Shown here one piece after another: positions 25,611-48,397 of a DNA stretch of 64,000 bases; the first letter of the stretch is position 1; each line of letters begins with the position of its first letter. The DNA comes from Candidatus Micrarchaeota archaeon (lineage in GTDB: Archaea > Micrarchaeota > Micrarchaeia > Anstonellales > Bilamarchaeaceae). Below the pieces are notes generated by a model. That model saw only the letters and a list, made by a program, of their open reading frames with translations, had not been told where the DNA came from and made no database searches. The DNA lies in NCBI GenBank assembly GCA_964552755.1, contig CAZKHX010000002.1, forward strand, positions 4,775 to 68,774. Direction: 5' to 3'. The position numbers and the translations under genes were made by a program.

Positions 25611-26591
25611 CTAGGCAATCCTCTTTGGCCACCGCGCCTTTTTCCTGCCGAGCAGCACTATGCGCGACTTTTCGCACTCGTCAATCTTTTCATAATCCGG
25701 AAGCAATCCAAGCAGCTTCCCGCACAGCCCCCCCACGTATTCGTGCGTGGGCATGTTGCCCTCCTCAAGCCTCTGCCTTGAATATCCGAGGAACATGTAT
25801 GCCTTCACTTCTATGAAATCCGGCTTGGATTCGGAAAACAATTTTGCGTATTGCGCAATGTGCCCCTCCATGTCGTTTATCCCCCTTATTACCGTAAGCC
25901 GCACAACGGTCCTGCAGGGAAGCTCCCCAAGCAGGGAAAGCGAGTGCACAAGCCTCGCCCACGCATCCCCATGCACCGGCCTGCACACCTTCTTCAGCAT
26001 CTCTTCATTGGAAGCCGCAACGGAGATATACAGCTGCGTGGGCAGCGCATCCCCATCGCGCAGCCTTTCAAGCATTTCCGGCTCCTGCCCGTTGCTCACA
26101 AGGAAAACGGTCTTCACCTCCGGCCGCGCCTTCAGCTCCCGTATCAACTCAGGCAGTTTAGGATAGAGCGTCGGCTCGCCTGAAAGCGAAATCGCCCAGT
26201 GCGAAGGGAATTCGGAGAAGGAAACGTCAAACTTGCCCCGTTCGGAGCCAATCCCGCCGATGCCGCTCAGCAGCCTCTTCCTCTGCGCAACCACCCCTTC
26301 GATTATCTGCGCGGGCCCCTCCGCCTGCTCCTCCGGGACCGGCCCCGGGCCCATCCATTCCATCGGCCTCCAGCAGAACATGCAGTTTTCGGAGCACCAT
26401 GCGGCGCACGGGCTCATCTGCGCGCAGCGGTAAGTGTCCACCCCGTAAAATTTGTCCTTGTAGCAGGTCCCCTGCCCCCTCAGCGCCTTCCGAGTCCAGG
26501 AGCAGATTTGCACTGCGGAGTGCCTCCCCGCAAGCCCGTATTTCTTCTTTTCGAACTCTTCCTTTGCGCCCGAAGAAAAAGAAAAATCCAT
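25611..26591 (-). CDS. taw1: tRNA 4-demethylwyosine synthase (radical SAM, Taw1/TYW1)
   Basis: HSAVQICSWTRKALRGQGTCYKDKFYG and radical-SAM CSENCMFC (CX3CX2C). 326 aa. Confidence 0.85.
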   Translation of the reverse strand: MDFSFSSGAKEEFEKKKYGLAGRHSAVQICSWTRKALRGQGTCYKDKFYGVDTYRCAQMSPCAAWCSENCMFCWRPMEWMGPGPVPEEQAEGPAQIIEGVVAQRKRLLSGIGGIGSERGKFDVSFSEFPSHWAISLSGEPTLYPKLPELIRELKARPEVKTVFLVSNGQEPEMLERLRDGDALPTQLYISVAASNEEMLKKVCRPVHGDAWARLVHSLSLLGELPCRTVVRLTVIRGINDMEGHIAQYAKLFSESKPDFIEVKAYMFLGYSRQRLEEGNMPTHEYVGGLCGKLLGLLPDYEKIDECEKSRIVLLGRKKARWPKRIA

Positions 26592-26600
26592 TTGCCCCTC

Positions 26601-27236
26601 TCACTTCTTTTTTGCGGCCTTCTTTTCCGTTTTCTTGGCCGGCTTCTTCGCAGGGGCCTTTGCCTTTTCGAGCTTCGCCACGCCCTTTGCAAGCTGCCTG
26701 AGGTCCTTCTCAAGGATGTCGCATGCGCGCAGCAGCATCTCGCTCGGGCCCATCGAGAGGAAGCTCTCGGCCTTTATCGTGACCGTGCCGTCCTCATTGG
26801 GCACGCATGCGCCCATTCCTGCCTGGTGCTTTGCATGCGTCCTGCCGTCCCCGAGGACTGCCTTGCCCTCCAGCCGCAGGCTCTGCCCCTCGAACAGGGT
26901 AATGATGGGTATCTTCGGCTCCGCAACGCTGATTGCCGCGTCGTTGCTCGTGAGGTCGCCGCTGTACACCCTCTTCGGCCCGGCCGCATCGAGCGTGAAG
27001 GTCACCTCGACGCTTTCGGGAAGGCCCTTCGGCGTCTTTATGGGCAGCAGGCCCATGCGGTGCGCAATGTACTCGTCGAATACCGAGCTCGTGTTGTCGT
27101 AGAGCGTAATGGTGTCAATAGCGAGCACAGGCACCCTGCTCATCGCATAGCGCCTTATCGCGTTCGCGACCGGAAGCGAAATCCCCTTCGCTTCTACTAC
27201 AACCCTTCCCTTGTCTTCTTTCGCGGAAAGCTGCAT
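26601..27236 (-). CDS. rpoD: DNA-directed RNA polymerase subunit D (Rpo3) with Lys-rich C-terminal tail
   Basis: ISLPVANAIRRYAMSRVPVLAIDTITLYDNTSSVFDEYIAHRMGLLPIK. Only 2 Cys, so no Fe-S domain. Tail AKLEKAKAPAKKPAKKTEKKAAKKK. Confidence 0.85.
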   Translation of the reverse strand: MQLSAKEDKGRVVVEAKGISLPVANAIRRYAMSRVPVLAIDTITLYDNTSSVFDEYIAHRMGLLPIKTPKGLPESVEVTFTLDAAGPKRVYSGDLTSNDAAISVAEPKIPIITLFEGQSLRLEGKAVLGDGRTHAKHQAGMGACVPNEDGTVTIKAESFLSMGPSEMLLRACDILEKDLRQLAKGVAKLEKAKAPAKKPAKKTEKKAAKKK

Positions 27237-29357: not shown

Positions 29358-30521
29358 ATGGAGAGGATAGCCCGGGGCGCATGCAATGGTTCCGAGAAGG
29401 GTGCGCGCCCTGAGAACCGGGGCAGGATGAGGGCGCAGGCCGGCATGGAAAAGCCTGAGCCCGAAAAATCCCCATTCAGCGCAAAGCAGCTGCTTGCAAT
29501 GGCCGCGATAGTGCTTGCGGCAGTTTCATTTTCAAAATGCGGGGGTTCAGAAAAATTCAGGGCAGATTCATCAGAAGACACACGGCAGGACATGCCTGCG
29601 GAAGTGGCGGATGCGCCGGTCGAAACGCCGGACCTCCCGCCCGAGGTTGAGGATGCGCCGGACCTTGACGCCCTCCCGGACCTGACAGATATGGTTGAAG
29701 AGGATGTGGGGGAGGATGAGGGCCCGCCCCCCGAGCCCACCTATGACCGGCTTTCGCTTGACCGGGAAAGCCGTACAATGTTTACGTTCACCGATGGTTC
29801 CGGGGAAGTATGCTACACTGAAACCGAAGGCCTTTACCTGCTTGAGACCCGGGACAGCGAGTTCACGCTGAGCGGCGGGTATGCGGGCGCAGGCACCCGG
29901 TCCGGCAGCAGGGCATTCATAATCTATGAATTCTCTTCGCCCGCCACCAGCTGCACCGGCCTCGAGCCGGTAAACGGCTCCGCGGTGCTGGAGACGCCCG
30001 GCGGCACGATGTATTTCTACCAGTATCCGGAAACAGGCCCGCTCGAGATTTCCTACCCGTGGGCAGGCGAGAACAGCCATATACTAATATACAACCGGGC
30101 GGACGCACCGCATGGCGATGAGGCACACAAAGGGAAAGTGCAGGTCTATCTTGTCGGCCCGGTTGGGCAATATGAAATCGAAGAGGGCGTATTCGCCAAC
30201 ATCGTTGAGGCGCTCGGCGTGAAAATCAACGAGTCCGGGCATCTCCTCTCAATCTTCGAGGACATGGAGGGCAAGGCCGGGCTTTTCGTCATGGATGAGT
30301 GGCATGCCACCGATGCAGGCACAACCATCGCCTTTGATTTCCACGGCTATGCGAGCGGGGAAGATTACGAACAGGGCTTCATTTCCCCGCGCGGCACCGA
30401 GCTCAGCGCCAGGTCGGTTAGCACCGCAGTGCTCTTCGTGCCGGACTATTCCCAGTGGTGGAAAGTCGTTGGCCTGGACCTGTGCTGGGATGAGATGTCC
30501 CACCGGCTCGACCCCTGCTGA
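29358..30521 (+). CDS. Hypothetical secreted/lipoprotein-like protein
   Basis: Hydrophobic LLAMAAIVLAAVSFSKCGG followed by an acidic Pro-rich linker. Start is uncertain (in-frame ATGs also at about 29424 and 29445). Confidence 0.45.
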   Translation: MERIARGACNGSEKGARPENRGRMRAQAGMEKPEPEKSPFSAKQLLAMAAIVLAAVSFSKCGGSEKFRADSSEDTRQDMPAEVADAPVETPDLPPEVEDAPDLDALPDLTDMVEEDVGEDEGPPPEPTYDRLSLDRESRTMFTFTDGSGEVCYTETEGLYLLETRDSEFTLSGGYAGAGTRSGSRAFIIYEFSSPATSCTGLEPVNGSAVLETPGGTMYFYQYPETGPLEISYPWAGENSHILIYNRADAPHGDEAHKGKVQVYLVGPVGQYEIEEGVFANIVEALGVKINESGHLLSIFEDMEGKAGLFVMDEWHATDAGTTIAFDFHGYASGEDYEQGFISPRGTELSARSVSTAVLFVPDYSQWWKVVGLDLCWDEMSHRLDPC

Positions 30522-30545
30522 TGAGAAAAAGCGAGGTAGGCCTAA

Positions 30546-30566
30546 GGGTTTTTCATGAAAGTTTTT
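30546..30566 (+). terminator. Oligo-T runs downstream of the 29358-30521 gene
   Basis: gggttttt and agttttt within 45 nt after the stop. Confidence 0.35.
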
Positions 30567-30615
30567 CAGTCGCTCCGCTTCAACCCGACAACAAGTTGTC
30601 AGTGCCCTAGGTACG
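30566..30615. repeat. Family-A short structured repeat, copy A1 (noncoding)
   Basis: TCAGTCGCTCC core (30566-30576), CAAC, hairpin GACAAC-aa-GTTGTC (30587-30600), AGTGCCC. Bracketed by the 11-nt direct repeat CTAAGGGTTTT at 30542-30552 and 30618-30628. Confidence 0.6.
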
Positions 30616-30618
30616 TCT

Positions 30619-30670
30619 AAGGGTTTTGCGCTGCTGCTTTTGCCCGCAGAAGACAGCGGGACAAAAGCGG
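30619..30670. repeat. Family-B structured repeat, copy B1 (abuts the tRNA-Ser 3' end)
   Basis: AAGGGTTTTGCGC, then hairpin GCTTTTGCCCGC (30636-30647) / GCGGGaCAAAAGC (30656-30668). About 79 percent identical to the reverse complement of 46118-46170 by hand alignment. Confidence 0.6.
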
Positions 30671-30672
30671 CA

Positions 30673-30756
30673 CGCCGGGGGAGAGATTTGAACTCCCAAG
30701 CCCTTGCGGACACGCGCTTTCCAGGCGCGCGCACTACCAGATTATGCGACCCCGGC
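30673..30756 (-). tRNA. tRNA-Ser (anticodon GGA)
   Basis: Hand-folded 84-nt cloverleaf. Acceptor GCCGGGG/CCCCGGC and D stem GCAT/GTGC with a GG loop. Anticodon stem CGCGC/GCGCG with loop CUGGAAA. Long variable arm (GTCC-GCAA-GGGC) and T arm GGGAG-TTCAAAT-CTCTC. Discriminator G; no encoded CCA. Confidence 0.9.
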
Positions 30757-30760
30757 TCGA

Positions 30761-30786
30761 GAAGCGGGGGAAGGGTCCCCCTCTTC
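30761..30786 (-). other. 10-bp hairpin between the cbf5 stop and the tRNA-Ser 5' end
   Basis: GAAGCGGGGG-aagggt-CCCCCTCTTC, 9 of 10 positions paired. Lies 4 nt upstream of the tRNA. Confidence 0.4.
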
Positions 30787-37561: not shown

Positions 37562-38110
37562 TCACTTCTCCTTCTTCACTCGCCCTTTGGGCTCAGCCGC
37601 CTTCAGTCGCTCCCGCCCCAACAGGACAGCTTCGCTGTCCTTCGGCTCCAACGCGCCAGGCCGCTGTCGCTCAGCTGCCTTCCCCTCCACTTCCCTGAGC
37701 ATTCCGTTGTCCTCAAGGTAGGTGTGGAGGGCCTTCTTCCCCCTGAAGGAGCCGCCTTTCACCTTCAGGTACATGAACCTCCTGTCCTCAGGGCCGATTT
37801 CGCCCTTCTTCGCGAGATCTTCGAGGTACTTCCTCTGCGCGCGCACCTTCTCCATCCAGGCCTCCTTCTTTGGCTTCCTGGAATGCTTGGTGCCCTTCCT
37901 GCTCCCGCGGGAGCGCTTCCTCCCCGCCGGCTTCTTGCGGGGGCCCTTCTTCGGCAGCGCGTAGACCGCGCCGTCCGCAATCAGCCCGCGCACGTCCTCG
38001 CGCGTGAGCGCTTCCTCTGCGCGGCCGAGCTCCCCTTCCTTTATGCGCACCCTGCTCTCGCCAATCCCGAGCAGGTCCGCTGCAAGCCTTTTCACCGTCT
38101 TGGCGGTCAT
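37562..38110 (-). CDS. rpl19e: 50S ribosomal protein L19e (eL19) whose C-terminal tail includes repeat copy A2
   Basis: KRLAADLLGIGESRVRI..., RKGTKHSRKPKKEAWMEKVRAQRKYL. Tail ...AERQRPGALEPKDSEAVLLGRERLKAAEPKGRVKKEK. Confidence 0.9.
   Translation of the reverse strand: MTAKTVKRLAADLLGIGESRVRIKEGELGRAEEALTREDVRGLIADGAVYALPKKGPRKKPAGRKRSRGSRKGTKHSRKPKKEAWMEKVRAQRKYLEDLAKKGEIGPEDRRFMYLKVKGGSFRGKKALHTYLEDNGMLREVEGKAAERQRPGALEPKDSEAVLLGRERLKAAEPKGRVKKEK
37591..37703. repeat. Family-A repeat, copy A2 (in frame inside rpl19e)
   Basis: 37598-37675 matches 43163-43240 at 75 of 78 positions without gaps. Core TCAGTCGCTCC at 37603-37613. Hairpin GGACAGC-ttc-GCTGTCC at 37624-37640. Confidence 0.8.
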
Positions 38111-43039: not shown

Positions 43040-43906
43040 CTACATCTTCTTGGGCGGGTCCCTCCTCTTCGGCCTCTCCCTTGGCTTCGGCGCCCTCACG
43101 GGCTTCTGTGCCTTGCCCTTCTTCGCGTCCTTCTTTTCCTCCTCTTCCTTCCCCGCTTCAGTCGCCTTCAGTCGCTCCCGCTCCAACAGGACAGCTTCGC
43201 TGTCCTTCGGCTCCAACGCGCCAGGCTCCTGTCGCTCAGCCGGCTCCTCCCCCTTCACTTCCGCCTTCGGAACCTTTTTTGGAGCTTCAGGTGCCTTTGC
43301 CTCAGCCGGCTTCTCGGCCTTTGGCGCTTCCGGCGCCTTCTTCACCTCAGGTGCAGGCGCTTTCACTTCAGGTTTCGCCGCTTCCTTTGGTTTCTCTGCC
43401 GAGGCCTTAACCTCAGGCTTCTTCACTTCCGCCCTTGGCTTTATCGCCGGCCTTTTCGCGCCCTCCTTCTCCTTGAGCACGATTTCCACGCGCGCGGTCT
43501 CGAACCTCTGCGCCGAGCGCCTCCCCTTTGCCGCAAGCCGTGGGTAGGAGTTCTTCTTGTTCGCGCACGCATGCTCCACGACCAGCTCCTCGCTGAGCCC
43601 CTTCGCCTGCGCGTTCGCGAGCGCGCTCTTCAGCACCTTGAGCACGATGCGGGAGCACTTCTTCGGCCAGCGGCCCTTCCTGCCGCCGAGCTCCCTGCGG
43701 TGCGCCATGCGCTTGTTGTGCCCCCTGAACCTGAGGGGGATTTCACCCTTCTCGGCTTTCTCCAGCAGGTCAACCGCCCAGTTCGCATTCCGGCTGCGGA
43801 TGTTGCCGCAGACCTCCGCAAGGTCCTTGAAGGATGCGTTGACGTTCTCTGCACGCGCAAACGCGAAATCCGCTTCCTTCCCTTTTGGTATGTCGTAGGA
43901 GTACAT
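43040..43906 (-). CDS. rpl22: 50S ribosomal protein L22 (uL22) with about 130-aa K/E/A/P-rich C-terminal extension containing repeat copy A3
   Basis: Core ARAENVNASFKDLAEVCGNIRSRNANWAVDLLEK...VVEHACANKKNSYPR. Extension ...KKPEVKASAEKPKEAAKPEVKAPAPEVKK...AERQEPGALEPKDSEAVLLERERLKA... Confidence 0.9.
   Translation of the reverse strand: MYSYDIPKGKEADFAFARAENVNASFKDLAEVCGNIRSRNANWAVDLLEKAEKGEIPLRFRGHNKRMAHRRELGGRKGRWPKKCSRIVLKVLKSALANAQAKGLSEELVVEHACANKKNSYPRLAAKGRRSAQRFETARVEIVLKEKEGAKRPAIKPRAEVKKPEVKASAEKPKEAAKPEVKAPAPEVKKAPEAPKAEKPAEAKAPEAPKKVPKAEVKGEEPAERQEPGALEPKDSEAVLLERERLKATEAGKEEEEKKDAKKGKAQKPVRAPKPRERPKRRDPPKKM
43155..43265. repeat. Family-A repeat, copy A3 (in frame inside rpl22)
   Basis: Perfect 10-nt tandem CTTCAGTCGC x2 (43156-43175). 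Core at 43168-43178. Hairpin at 43189-43205. 75 of 78 identity to copy A2. Confidence 0.8.
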
Positions 43907-45316: not shown

Positions 45317-46099
45317 TCACCACACCTCCGCAACGCGCTTCAGCGCGCTCTCCGTGTATACCGTAAGCCTCCCCGCATGCGTCCCCGGGGCGAGCATCTT
45401 CACCTTGAGGTCCTCGGCCTTCACCACGTTGACTCCGGCCAGGTTCCTCGCTGACTTCAGCGCGCCGCCTCCCGCAACAACCACGAGCACGGACTTCGCG
45501 CACTTTGTGCCCGCCTTCCTGCAGCGGGTGCCGCTCCTGCTCTTCCTGCTCGACTTGGCCCTCTCGAGGTCCTTGCCGACAAGCTTCGCAAGCGCCGCAA
45601 GCATCTCCTTTGTCTTTGAAATCTTCTCAAGGCCGTCTTCGACCACGAGCGGGAGTGCGCCTTCGTATGAGTGGCCCCTTGAGGAAACGAGCTCCGGCCT
45701 TGCGGTAGCCGCAATTGCGCTCCTCATGGCCTTCCTGTATTCCTTCCTGTTCATCCTCTCCACTAGCTTCTTCTCCACCTTCGGGGGGTGCGCCCTGCGG
45801 CCCTTCACCGCGGAGGGGATCCTCTTCACTTTCCCCCACCCGCCTTCGGGGCGGACTTCGCGGGGCAGCATCGCCTGGCCGCGGTTCTTCAGGGAGCCGT
45901 ATGCCTCCTTCCTCCCGCGGTATTTCGCGGAGGTCTCAAGGCCCGCGTACTTGAACGCACCCTGCGGCTGGTATTCCCTGCTTTCGTCCGAAAGCACGGC
46001 GCGGCGGATTAGCTCCTCGCGCACATCCTCGTTGAATGCGGAAGGCAGCTCAACCTTGCCCTTTGCCTTCCCGTCCAGAGAGTAAACGTCAGCGTCCAT
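45317..46099 (-). CDS. rpl4: 50S ribosomal protein L4 (uL4)
   Basis: MDADVYSLDGKAKGKVELPSAF...YRGRKEAYGSLKNRGQAMLPR. AGGTG upstream of the ATG. Confidence 0.9.
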   Translation of the reverse strand: MDADVYSLDGKAKGKVELPSAFNEDVREELIRRAVLSDESREYQPQGAFKYAGLETSAKYRGRKEAYGSLKNRGQAMLPREVRPEGGWGKVKRIPSAVKGRRAHPPKVEKKLVERMNRKEYRKAMRSAIAATARPELVSSRGHSYEGALPLVVEDGLEKISKTKEMLAALAKLVGKDLERAKSSRKSRSGTRCRKAGTKCAKSVLVVVAGGGALKSARNLAGVNVVKAEDLKVKMLAPGTHAGRLTVYTESALKRVAEVW

Positions 46100-46102
46100 T
46101 CA

Positions 46103-46195
46103 TCACACCTTCGATTGCCCGCTTTTGTCTTTCGTCCTGCTTCGGGCAAAAGCAGGCGCGCAAAACCCTGAGGAACAACAATTCTTCCCGTCCAT
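46103..46195 (-). CDS. Possible 30-aa micro-ORF created by the junction duplication
   Basis: MDGKNCCSSGFCAPAFARSRTKDKSGQSKV*. It uses the duplicated rpl4 SD and ATG and ends at the duplicated rpl3 stop. Coding status is doubtful. Confidence 0.2.
   Translation of the reverse strand: MDGKNCCSSGFCAPAFARSRTKDKSGQSKV
46118..46170. repeat. Family-B structured repeat, copy B2 (inside the rpl3-rpl4 insert, opposite orientation to B1)
   Basis: Minus strand reads CAGGGTTTTGCGCGCCTGCTTTTGCCCGAAGCAGG...GACAAAAGCGGGC. CCTGCTT/AAGCAGG stem. Confidence 0.6.
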
Positions 46196-46198
46196 CCG

Positions 46199-47146
46199 TC
46201 ACACCTTCGATTCCAGAGATACGCCGGTCAGCTTCGGTTCTCCCGCAGCGCCCTTGCGCACGCCGAGCCTGAAGCGCACAAGTCTCTTCACCGGCCCCGG
46301 GACTGAGCCCCGTATCAGCACGTATTCGTTCTTCACGAACCCGTAGCGCGGGAATCCGCCCTTCGGGTTGACTTCGTCAATGTTGCCGCTTATCTTCATG
46401 ATGCGCTTGTTCAGCTCGGTGCGCTTGTGGTACCCGGTCTGGCCGGGCCTCGGTATCGTGTAGAAGATGTATCCGGGCTTGAACTGGCCCATGCACCCGA
46501 TGTGCCTCCTCTTGCCCGTTGCCTTGGGCCTCTGCAGGCCGGTGCCGAATCTTTTCACGGTCCCCTGCCAGCCCTTGCCCTTGGTAACCGAAATCACGTC
46601 AACGAACTCGCCGGGCCTGAACACTTCCGAAGCCCTGAGCTCCTTGCCGAGCATGCCCTTTGCGAATTCGATTTTTGCGGCCGCGTCCGCGCCGCCCACG
46701 CGGAGCTCCATCCTCTCTGCGTGCTTCTTGCCTATGCCGGTCTTCTCCGGCTGGGCATAAACGAGCAGCGCGACTTCCTCGCACCCGTCCGCCTTCGCCT
46801 CCTTGGCGGTTTTCTTCTTGCGGACGCCAATCCTCTTGAGCACGTCCTCCTTTTCTATGAGCACTTCGCCGCTGCACTTCCTCCCCGAGTACGTCCTTAT
46901 CCCGTAAACCATGAGGGGCGGCACTTCTATCACTGTCACCGCGGTGGAAATCTCCTGCCCCTTCGCAGGGCCCTCGATGTCCTCCACGTAGTGGATGTGC
47001 GTCATCCCCGCCTTGTAACCTGCGAGGCCGAGCACCCTTCCTTCACCTGAGGGCGCCCAGTAATTGATGGTGGGCATCTGCTTCCGTGCCCGCTTCCTTG
47101 GCCTGTATGCTAGAGAACCCTTTCTGGGTTTCAGTATGTCCGTCAT
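46199..47146 (-). CDS. rpl3: 50S ribosomal protein L3 (uL3)
   Basis: MTDILKPRKGSLAYRPRKRA...WQGTVKRFG. ATG 47146 lies 5 nt after AGGTG. ORF-track GTG 47173 lacks an SD. Confidence 0.9.
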   Translation of the reverse strand: MTDILKPRKGSLAYRPRKRARKQMPTINYWAPSGEGRVLGLAGYKAGMTHIHYVEDIEGPAKGQEISTAVTVIEVPPLMVYGIRTYSGRKCSGEVLIEKEDVLKRIGVRKKKTAKEAKADGCEEVALLVYAQPEKTGIGKKHAERMELRVGGADAAAKIEFAKGMLGKELRASEVFRPGEFVDVISVTKGKGWQGTVKRFGTGLQRPKATGKRRHIGCMGQFKPGYIFYTIPRPGQTGYHKRTELNKRIMKISGNIDEVNPKGGFPRYGFVKNEYVLIRGSVPGPVKRLVRFRLGVRKGAAGEPKLTGVSLESKV

Positions 47147-47286
47147 GTAGACACCTATTGTGTTGCCCTCCACCGCGGAGGGGCACTTTTTTCACGCCTT
47201 CCTCTCGGAAAGCATAACACTTTTCCCACGTTGCACGCCAGCCCAAAGGGCGCGCGCAGTGTGTGGCGTGGCAAAAAGGTAAAGCT

Positions 47287-47318: not shown

Positions 47319-47378
47319 TCAGTCGCTCCGTTGAGCTCCAACTCGCCAGCAAAGTTGGCGATCAAGTGCCCGAACGCG
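47319..47378. repeat. Family-A repeat, copy A4 (noncoding)
   Basis: Core TCAGTCGCTCC at 47319-47329, CCAAC, hairpin CGCCAGC-aaa-GTTGGCG (47344-47360), AGTGCCC at 47365-47371. Immediately 3' of the 47384-48397 gene. Confidence 0.55.
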
Positions 47379-47383
47379 AAAGG

Positions 47384-48397
47384 TCATGCCGCAGCAGCCA
47401 TTGCGCCCCTTATGCTCTCCTGCGAGCCGAGCATCTCCTGCAGCTTCGGATTCTTCTTCCCCGCTTCCTTCTCAAGCGCGGCAGTGAGCTTCTCCAGCGT
47501 CCTGAGCCGCCATTCCCTCGGAACGGAAGAAAGGTATTCTCCTATTTCCCCCAGACTGCAGGTGATGATGCAGCAGTGCTCTCCCGCCTTGGAGGCGCAC
47601 CCGGCAAGCGTTTCGAGCGCGGGAAGGCGGTCCTCCTCCCTCATGCGCTCAAGCACCATGGGCAGGCCCTTCCCAAGCCCGTTGAGCACGAAATCAATGA
47701 GGTATTCCTTGCGGCCCTTCAGGCCCCTGAGCATCTCCTCCACCTGCTTCCCGCCATAGTAATATGTGTTAATCATGTACGGGTCGTAGAAGATTGAGCG
47801 GTCGCGCGCAGCGCTTACGTAAAGCACGTCCATGCCCTGCCCGAGCTCCTTCTCGGTTACCTTGTTCACCACTTCCATGAACATGCCGGCCTTCAGCTCC
47901 ATGTGCTCCTTGTCCAGCACGAGCTCCTTCAGCAGGCGGGAAAACGAGTATTCGCCCTTCTGGCGCATCTTTTCCCATACGCGGCCCGCATCCTTTTTCG
48001 CATAGGGCGGCAGGGCCTTCATGAATGACTTCACCTTCGGCTCTTCCCTCTTTATTATGTCAATCGGGCCCTCGCTCTGCGCCGCACCCATTGCGCGCAC
48101 CGGCCGCCTCCTCTGCGGTGGAAGCTTCGCATGCCTCACGTCCCTGGCCTCTGTGTGCTCTGCGGCCGCTGAAACAACAAGGGAGTCAATCTTCTCCTTG
48201 AGCTCGCGCTCCCCTTTCCTGCGGGCGTTCAGCTTTTCAGACGCGTCAGCCAGCGTGAGCAGCGTTGCGGTGCGCGAAAAGGAGAAATCATGCACGTGCA
48301 CGAGCTCCGCGAGTATCTCGTCCACTTCTGCCGCGTGCTCTGCCTCAAGCGCGCTCAGCTTCACCCTCTTCAGGTCCGCGGCCGGGATTCCCTTCAT
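47384..48397 (-). CDS. Hypothetical protein (337 aa), no recognisable family
   Basis: ORF-track entry. Leaderless ATG 27.5 nt from a TATA box. Coding-like composition. No motifs recognised. Confidence 0.55.
   Translation of the reverse strand: MKGIPAADLKRVKLSALEAEHAAEVDEILAELVHVHDFSFSRTATLLTLADASEKLNARRKGERELKEKIDSLVVSAAAEHTEARDVRHAKLPPQRRRPVRAMGAAQSEGPIDIIKREEPKVKSFMKALPPYAKKDAGRVWEKMRQKGEYSFSRLLKELVLDKEHMELKAGMFMEVVNKVTEKELGQGMDVLYVSAARDRSIFYDPYMINTYYYGGKQVEEMLRGLKGRKEYLIDFVLNGLGKGLPMVLERMREEDRLPALETLAGCASKAGEHCCIITCSLGEIGEYLSSVPREWRLRTLEKLTAALEKEAGKKNPKLQEMLGSQESIRGAMAAAA

Follow-up and report, generated by a model that had tools for sequence, protein, structure and literature searches.

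The boundary between the ribosomal protein genes rpl3 and rpl4 in a 64,000-nt stretch of DNA from Candidatus Micrarchaeota archaeon (assembly GCA_964552755.1, contig CAZKHX010000002.1, positions 4,775-68,774 of the forward strand; hereafter the window, numbered from its first letter) is widened by a 96-nt insertion that carries a small hairpin repeat, family B, together with a second copy of the junction itself. The operon lies on the minus strand of the window and runs rpl3, rpl4, rpl23, rpl2, rps19 and on through secY. The duplicated 24 nt hold the rpl3 stop codon, the Shine-Dalgarno (SD) sequence and the rpl4 start codon, and the two copies bound a 30-codon open reading frame (ORF), referred to here as the micro-ORF. 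We give about an even chance to the whole of the following account: a derived insertion of family B, duplication of the junction around it and a micro-ORF that relays translation from rpl3 to rpl4. The features of the junction are as follows:

46199-47173, minus strand: rpl3 (uL3), 324 amino acids, ending ...SLESKV-TGA (TGA at 46201-46199); called on identical contigs with a Pfam Ribosomal_L3 match.
46189-46212, minus strand: upstream copy of the junction, with the last four L3 codons, TGA, a CGG spacer and ATGGACG, where the micro-ORF now begins.
46103-46195, minus strand: micro-ORF of 30 codons (MDGKNCCSSGFCAPAFARSRTKDKSGQSKV), with its ATG 3 nt past the L3 stop and its stop 3 nt ahead of the L4 ATG.
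46173-46188, minus strand: filler of 16 nt (GGAAGAATTGTTGTTC), absent from the other family-B copies, the 5' flanks of the five copies being unrelated.
46117-46172, minus strand: family-B copy E1, with the leader CTCAGGGTTTTGCGC, an 11-bp stem (46157-46147 with 46127-46117) and a 19-nt variable loop; 82 bits with covariance model R1.
46093-46116, minus strand: downstream copy of the junction, with TGA-TGA-ATG kept as in the ancestor; it gives rpl4 its SD, spacing and start, and matches the L011 and L012 junction given below.
45317-46099, minus strand: rpl4 (uL4), 260 amino acids, Pfam PF00573, with its start at 46099.

Read on the coding strand, the upstream copy (46212-46189) is ...CTGGAATCGAAGGTGTGAcggATGGACGggaag... 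and the downstream copy (46116-46093) is ...GGGCAATCGAAGGTGTGAtgaATGGACGctgac...; that is, AATCGAAGGTGTGA-CGG-ATGGACG and AATCGAAGGTGTGA-TGA-ATGGACG respectively, at an offset of 96 nt. An earlier note on this DNA, made from the letters alone, had described this 24-mer as occurring twice and carrying the end and TGA of rpl3, the SD and the start of rpl4. Its coordinates were reproduced here, but the copies are identical at 22 of 24 positions rather than the 21 it counted, the middle base of the spacer matching too. Both mismatches are transitions and both fall inside the 3-nt spacer (CGG versus TGA), while the neighbouring ATGGACG of the upstream copy is unchanged. Local alignment of one flank with the other (150 nt on the left by 150 nt on the right) gave a score of 19, which was matched at none of 3000 random positions in the organism's own sequence, each sampled as two 150-nt flanks separated by 56 nt (99.9th percentile, 16). 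Across the non-repetitive 52 kb of the window, no other near-exact local direct repeat is as long as the 24-mer. Judged by sequence, it is a duplicate of the junction and includes the stop of L3, the GGTG SD and the start of L4. The 5 nt that follow the upstream copy (GGAAG) equal nucleotides 29-33 of the L4 gene, just after the second TGGACG in rpl4, and TGGACGGGAAG recurs at 46077-46067; as a post hoc observation, this may mean that the initial duplication was of about 50 nt and was shortened afterwards by a 21-nt slippage deletion between the two TGGACG repeats.

The rpl3-rpl4 junctions of 53 GTDB genomes were compared with that of the window, together with the junction of L105, the nearest relative in the protein database (76% L4 identity). 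The L4 homologues assign the organism to the Micrarchaeota, some of them being named Bilamarchaeaceae or Anstonellales. In the four nearest relatives (L011, L012, L013 and L105; 71-76% L4 identity) the gap between the two genes is 2-3 nt, and L3 ends in SLESKV and a stop in all four, as it does in the upstream copy here. From the end of L3 to the start of L4 these junctions read:

L011 and L012: GGAATCAAAGGTGTGA, then TGA, then ATGAA.
L013: AAGGTGTGA, then AT, then ATGAAGG, a gap of 2 nt.
L105: AAAGGTGTAA, then TA, then ATGAAGG.

The gap is at most 11 nt in 39 of the 53 Micrarchaeota loci; the remaining 22 gaps of the operon in the window range from -8 to +16 nt, and nearly every gene of this operon has GGTG 5-10 nt ahead of its ATG. 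Because the nearest relatives have a gap of 2-3 nt and the other gaps of the operon are short, the 96-nt insertion is, on this comparison, derived and lineage-specific. Reconstructed without it, the empty site reads GGTGTGATGAATGGAC, and the ancestral junction that had been predicted from the window is essentially the one present in L011 and L012 (GGAATCAAAGGTGTGA-TGA-ATGAA). Long rpl3-rpl4 spacers of another kind occur in two distant relatives, Micrarchaeota CG1_02_47_40 (L038, 2797-3000; 204 nt) and a Norongarragalinales metagenome-assembled genome (L056, 2898-3000; 103 nt). These two have GCAAATGCAAATTGGAA and small ORFs in common and no relation to family B, and additional small cistrons at rpl3-rpl4 therefore arose more than once.

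Local misassembly, which had been named as an alternative, is excluded by nine contigs from different samples and three pipelines (ENA, JGI and Logan): no base of the 99-nt L3-L4 spacer differs among them. The source samples include JGI 3300017989, 3300017971 and 3300017963 and ENA ERZ272567xx. The beginning of Logan contig L009 inside the repeat, its position 1 falling in the 3' arm of the family-B copy (AAGCGGGCAATCG...), might be held up as a sign of an artefact, but it is what a k-mer recurring elsewhere in the genome would produce, and the probability of an artefact is negligible. Two of the nine contigs are 100% identical across 15.4 kb, and the population carrying the insertion is one clonal population.

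The 72 nt between the junction copies had been said to hold the family-B repeat, and 56 of them do align with that family; the other 16 are the filler. The second copy in the window is the following:

30617-30672, plus strand: family-B copy E2, a strong hairpin (z = -3.6) that abuts the 3' end of tRNA-Ser(GGA) (30673-30756, minus strand).

A 20-base pattern scan of JGI metagenomes supplied three more, all from the same sample series (L093, = L100; L094, = L096; and L099), which brings the number of distinct copies, each about 55 nt long, to five; of the ten matches to the pattern in metagenomes, five were rejected as chance, having no hairpin. The five copies share a 29-nt 5' part, CTCAGGGTTTTGCGC(GC/TG)CTGCTTTTGCCC, which is 93-100% identical among them, and a 3' arm, ACAAAAGCGG(G)C; the loop in between, 15-19 nt long, is wholly variable. 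Each of the five can be drawn with an 11-bp stem (98% of cells paired), which is the favoured fold in only two of them, E2 (z = -3.6) and L099 (z = -2.7). Two adjacent stem pairs covary in the alignment, probably reflecting a single event that divided two subtypes, and a U.G pair that is invariant in the stem favours the sense strand. All five copies lie on the sense strand, 26-148 nt past the stop of a protein gene. Within positions 1-2470 of L099, the copy is situated at the border between a low-GC stretch (38-48%) and a glutamine amidotransferase gene of normal GC (~59%). Two proteins encoded in the low-GC stretch, one DNA methyltransferase-like (DPPF motif) and the other HFX_2341/CARF-like, give it the look of a defence island.

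Rfam gave no match for 46000-46300 at E up to 10, and only tRNA and noise for 30480-30780; the motif is absent from Rfam. Covariance model R1, built on the five copies, found no more of them in the rest of the window, in the 9.4 kb to its left (L102), in the rpl4 loci of 20 relatives or in L105, and a scan of IMG/VR for family B gave no match. By inspection, there are no terminal inverted repeats at the ends of the 72-nt insert (GGAAGAATT... and ...AAGCGGGC) or at those of the 56-nt core (CTCAGGG... and ...GCGGGC). A search of the literature found nothing on hairpin repeats of Micrarchaeota.

Whether long duplications are a trait of family B, as the earlier note had raised, was answered differently by different copies. 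In L093 an intron-containing tRNA-Leu(UAG), not called by ARAGORN and read by eye, precedes the element, and on the element's other side lies a second copy of the last part of this tRNA gene, 28 nt long (CAGGGGGCAGGATTTGAACCTGCGTAG, in the orientation of the element). This second 28-nt copy is interrupted by a 44-nt hairpin element of a different family; with the nested element taken out, the flank-versus-flank score is 23, which was reached at no random position; L093 is the one clear second case. The 19-nt gapped repeat that flanks the copy in L096 is not significant (p ~0.065), and E2 and L099 have no flanking direct repeat.

The regions downstream of the two tRNA genes, tRNA-Ser(GGA) (window 30480-30700) and tRNA-Leu(UAG) (L093 13725-13960), are built alike: the tRNA, a T, antisense family B, a short linker, a copy of a second repeat (family A, described below), AAAAA... 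and AAACCCTnAG. In both trailers the 5' end of family B recurs as a short copy (CTMAGGGTTT) 76-124 nt off. A model for C/D-box small RNAs, sR19, weakly matched 30484-30547 on the plus strand (14.6 bits, E = 0.27, well under gathering); this match overlaps the end of ORF 29358-30521 and is probably noise.

The 30-codon ORF proposed earlier, from the duplicated rpl4 start to the duplicated rpl3 stop, was found at 46195-46103. Its SD (AAGGTG) and its first two codons are duplicates of those of rpl4; AAGGTG ahead of both ATGs fits the GGTG consensus of the operon, and the L4 SD sits within the last L3 codons. The micro-ORF arose automatically with the duplication. We infer that it is likely to be translated, and translation would be hard to avoid because the SD and the ATG 3 nt past the L3 stop equal those of a highly expressed gene. 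A role of the micro-ORF in L4 expression is uncertain, and a relay by termination-reinitiation across the spacer would be plausible, in keeping with the 3-nt distances at both ends and with the published effect of distance on reinitiation. Termination-reinitiation depends on distance (PMC10666635, PMC6728339), and about 20 nt of untranslated spacer nearly abolishes reinitiation in Haloferax volcanii and Escherichia coli reporters (PMC10666635). The minimum free energy (MFE) structure predicted for the spacer has the L4 SD, AGGUGUG, base-paired with CGCGCCU from the repeat. Inspection of the 99 nt revealed no TATA-like A/T-rich box that could mark an internal rpl4 promoter.

In the account that we favour, 72 nt entered the rpl3-rpl4 junction after the split from the nearest sampled relatives, when the gap was still 3 nt (GGTGTGA-TGA-ATG), and at least 24 nt of the target were duplicated, as by a widely staggered break or a template switch. 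The sequence itself shows the insertion, the duplication, the family to which the insert belongs and the geometry. The upstream copy completes L3, and the downstream copy supplies L4 with its native SD, spacing and ATG; the insertion was probably kept because the long duplication spared signals that an insertion would otherwise destroy. Ribosomes ending L3 would then reinitiate 3 nt on, at the micro-ORF, and in translating it would melt repeat structure that could otherwise pair with the L4 SD; on stopping at the micro-ORF end they would reinitiate 3 nt further on, at L4. Coupling would thereby be carried over a 99-nt gap that would otherwise abolish it.

Several observations speak against this account. 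The insert is open in all three sense frames, and two of the three phases would stop at most 10 nt from the L4 start; because all three frames are open, the open 30-codon frame is no sign of selection. All assemblies carry a single haplotype and thus offer no variation that would reveal selection on the micro-ORF. L4 has a good SD and could start independently, which would make a relay needless. The fold that masks this SD is no stabler than shuffled sequences (z = -1.3), and the family-B stem is not the MFE fold of the rpl3-rpl4 copy, where alternative pairings compete and stability is no better than that of shuffled sequence (z about 0). As to the insertion itself, significant flanking duplications are found at only two of the five family-B copies (24 nt at E1 and 28 nt in L093), and a tandem duplication or the remnant of an integrase att site would be another reading of the arrangement in L093. 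No transposase, integrase, Cas1 or reverse transcriptase is present among the Pfam-annotated genes of the ~73 kb reachable, which is a small part of the genome.

The same insertion and duplication may instead have left a neutral scar, in which the micro-ORF has no role and is translated wastefully or hardly at all while L4 starts by its own SD; we regard this as possible, though short of probable. L4 has a consensus GGTG SD at its native spacing, chance alone predicts an open frame with a stop near the start, and there is no sequence variation from which constraint could be inferred. It is hard to see, however, how the micro-ORF would escape translation when its SD, spacer length, ATG and second codon are those of a highly expressed ribosomal protein gene and stand 3 nt past the L3 stop. 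The upstream ATGGACG, left intact while both substitutions fell in the adjacent spacer, is a further, weak hint of constraint.

The same structure need not have come from transposition: template switching during replication, or tandem duplication, would account for it if a stalled fork had copied about 70 nt from a family-B locus and resumed 24-50 nt behind its point of departure. Such an origin would suit the lack of terminal inverted repeats, the variable length of the duplications (24, 28 and possibly 19 nt) and the unrelated, variable filler on the 5' side. It would also suit the GGAAG that equals L4 nucleotides 29-33, with its suggestion of an original duplication of ~50 nt that was later trimmed, and the L093 trailer, in which there is a second, degenerate B-like end. 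A donor locus sharing both filler and loop was not found, however, and the loops differ completely in the five copies; we hold this explanation to be doubtful.

Family B could also be a module that acts at the 3' end of RNA, as a partial oligo-U terminator, a stabilizing hairpin or a processing site, and that makes expression of L3 independent of the 22 genes after it, through attenuation or differential stability, in the manner of the malE-malF REP (repetitive extragenic palindromic) sequence. The position of all five copies in the sense orientation 26-148 nt past a protein-gene stop agrees with this, as do the conserved U.G pair and the antisense copies that stand directly after two tRNA genes as T-GCCGCTTTTG. 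The element moreover gives two of only five runs of T4 or longer on the coding strand of the 11.9-kb operon, but these tracts are short for archaeal terminators, being two T4 runs with no run of five or more T. Attenuation would come at a high price with 22 essential genes downstream, the rpl3-rpl4 copy has a weak hairpin (z about 0, as above), and the duplications around the element at two sites point to insertion and not to the evolution of a local signal. We therefore consider a module of this kind unlikely.

It would go well beyond the favoured account to propose that family B, and perhaps family A, are undescribed small archaeal mobile elements with variable target duplications of 24-50 nt, and that the relay mini-cistron is required for the coupling of L4 and the downstream genes to L3. 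We judge this combination improbable. Under it, a Cas1/casposase-like integrase, or target-primed copying of the 3' end of a transcript, would have placed the element, and the regenerated stop, SD and start would allow it to colonise junctions of essential coupled genes. The products of Cas1-family integration (CRISPR spacer acquisition and casposons) and the tRNA att duplications made by integrases likewise have a short insert between target duplications of 24-30 nt, and one of the two clear cases here is at the 3' end of a tRNA gene. The duplications of 24 nt (E1) and 28 nt (L093) fall in the Cas1-type target range of about 24-37 nt. In contrast to such products, the insert is not a random spacer but one particular repeat, with no leader and no terminal inverted repeat, and the ~73 kb showed no gene for Cas1, a casposase or an integrase. 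The likeness is offered only as a lead.

Excision of the 96 nt from the mRNA as a bulge-helix-bulge (BHB) intron would restore the ancestral junction, and removal of exactly 96 nt at any equivalent place in the repeats does recreate GGTGTGA-TGA-ATGGAC; this is very unlikely and was rejected by an explicit motif scan (4-bp central helix, 3-nt bulges), in which no candidate of 96-nt spacing lay inside the repeats, the sole 96-nt candidate had no outer helix and would delete part of rpl4, and the TCGA/TCGA pairing in the repeats had neither flanking helix. Recoding of UGA to yield an L3-microORF-L4 fusion was ruled out, as normal-length genes elsewhere in the operon end in TGA.

Among known repeats, REP sequences and bacterial interspersed mosaic elements (BIMEs), of which the malE-malF REP is an example, resemble family B in being short and dispersed, in lying in mRNA downstream of ORFs and in being able to stand between cistrons. 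An imperfect hairpin, conserved in its stem and flank but not in its loop, may be a further likeness, the stem being the favoured fold in only two of the five family-B copies. Family B differs from them in its archaeal DPANN host, its unrelated sequence, an apparently low copy number (2 per 73 kb) and the lack of any RAYT transposase seen; REPs are not known to be flanked by long target duplications. Miniature inverted-repeat transposable elements (MITEs), such as the Correia elements of Neisseria and the archaeal MITEs of Sulfolobus and haloarchaea, are likewise small, non-coding and dispersed, and can enter operons and alter expression; they make direct target duplications, of which family B has significant ones at two of its five copies. 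Unlike these, family B has no terminal inverted repeats, its duplication is variable (24-28 nt, possibly ~50) where 2-10 nt is usual, and its 5' filler varies. Rickettsia palindromic elements (RPEs) are a parallel in that a small structured repeat is tolerated in conserved translation genes with the frame kept open; the rpl3-rpl4 copy, in contrast, is fused to neither protein, forms its own mini-cistron and has no sequence relation to them.

Bicistronic design puts a brief leader cistron ahead of the target gene, with the target's SD inside the leader and the leader's stop at the target's start codon. The micro-ORF resembles this synthetic form of termination-reinitiation coupling: it is a short ORF that ends 3 nt from a downstream ATG and has an SD in its last codons, and ribosomes translating it would keep the initiation region unfolded. 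The rpl3-rpl4 case differs in being natural, in having come from a junction duplication and in adding a putative second relay step between two native cistrons.

The rpl3-rpl4 boundary is among the most conserved and most tightly packed archaeal gene boundaries, and the present case illustrates a way for a small repeat to insert there with both genes preserved, namely by a duplication of the stop, SD and start. The same duplication yields, at no added cost, a natural 'bicistronic design'. If the relay works, the locus would be a natural experiment on the strict distance limit of archaeal termination-reinitiation; if long duplications are general in family B, they would point to an unusual integration mechanism in DPANN archaea.

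Family A, the second repeat, is 102-105 nt long and ~91% identical between copies, with the hairpin GGACAGC-GAAG-GCTGTCC and the motifs GTTGGAGC and GAGCGACTG. It stands in frame in the C-terminal tails of two ribosomal protein genes of the window:

43158-43253: family-A copy in rpl22 (43040-43906, minus strand).
37593-37688: family-A copy in rpl19e (37562-38110, minus strand).

The two proteins thus carry a common 33-amino acid peptide, ..AERQ(E/R)PGALEPKDSEAVLL(E/G)RERLKA(T/A)E, which is missing from the rpl22 tails of L011, L012, L015 and L017. As an in-frame insertion in ribosomal protein genes, family A is RPE-like. A protein search with the 33-amino acid peptide, doubled as query, gave no match, such a query being uninformative. 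A further family-A copy at 47319-47361 (TCGCCAACTTTGCTGGCGA-GTTGGAGCTCAACGGAGCGACTG on the coding strand) is flanked on one side by the stop of the preceding gene (47384-48397) and on the other by a TATTTAAA box, which is probably the promoter of the operon.

Two other genes of the window deserve mention. From ~52389 to beyond 64000, on the minus strand, lies part of a gene for a protein of 4680 amino acids with Laminin_G_3, Beta_helix and NosD repeats, which is the source of most of the internal direct-repeat families in the window. Beside rps11, rps4 and rps13, at 25611-27236 on the minus strand, a gene called as 541 amino acids matches Pfam RNA_pol_A_bac and RNA_pol_L (subunit D-like) together with Radical_SAM and Wyosine_form, and may be a fusion.

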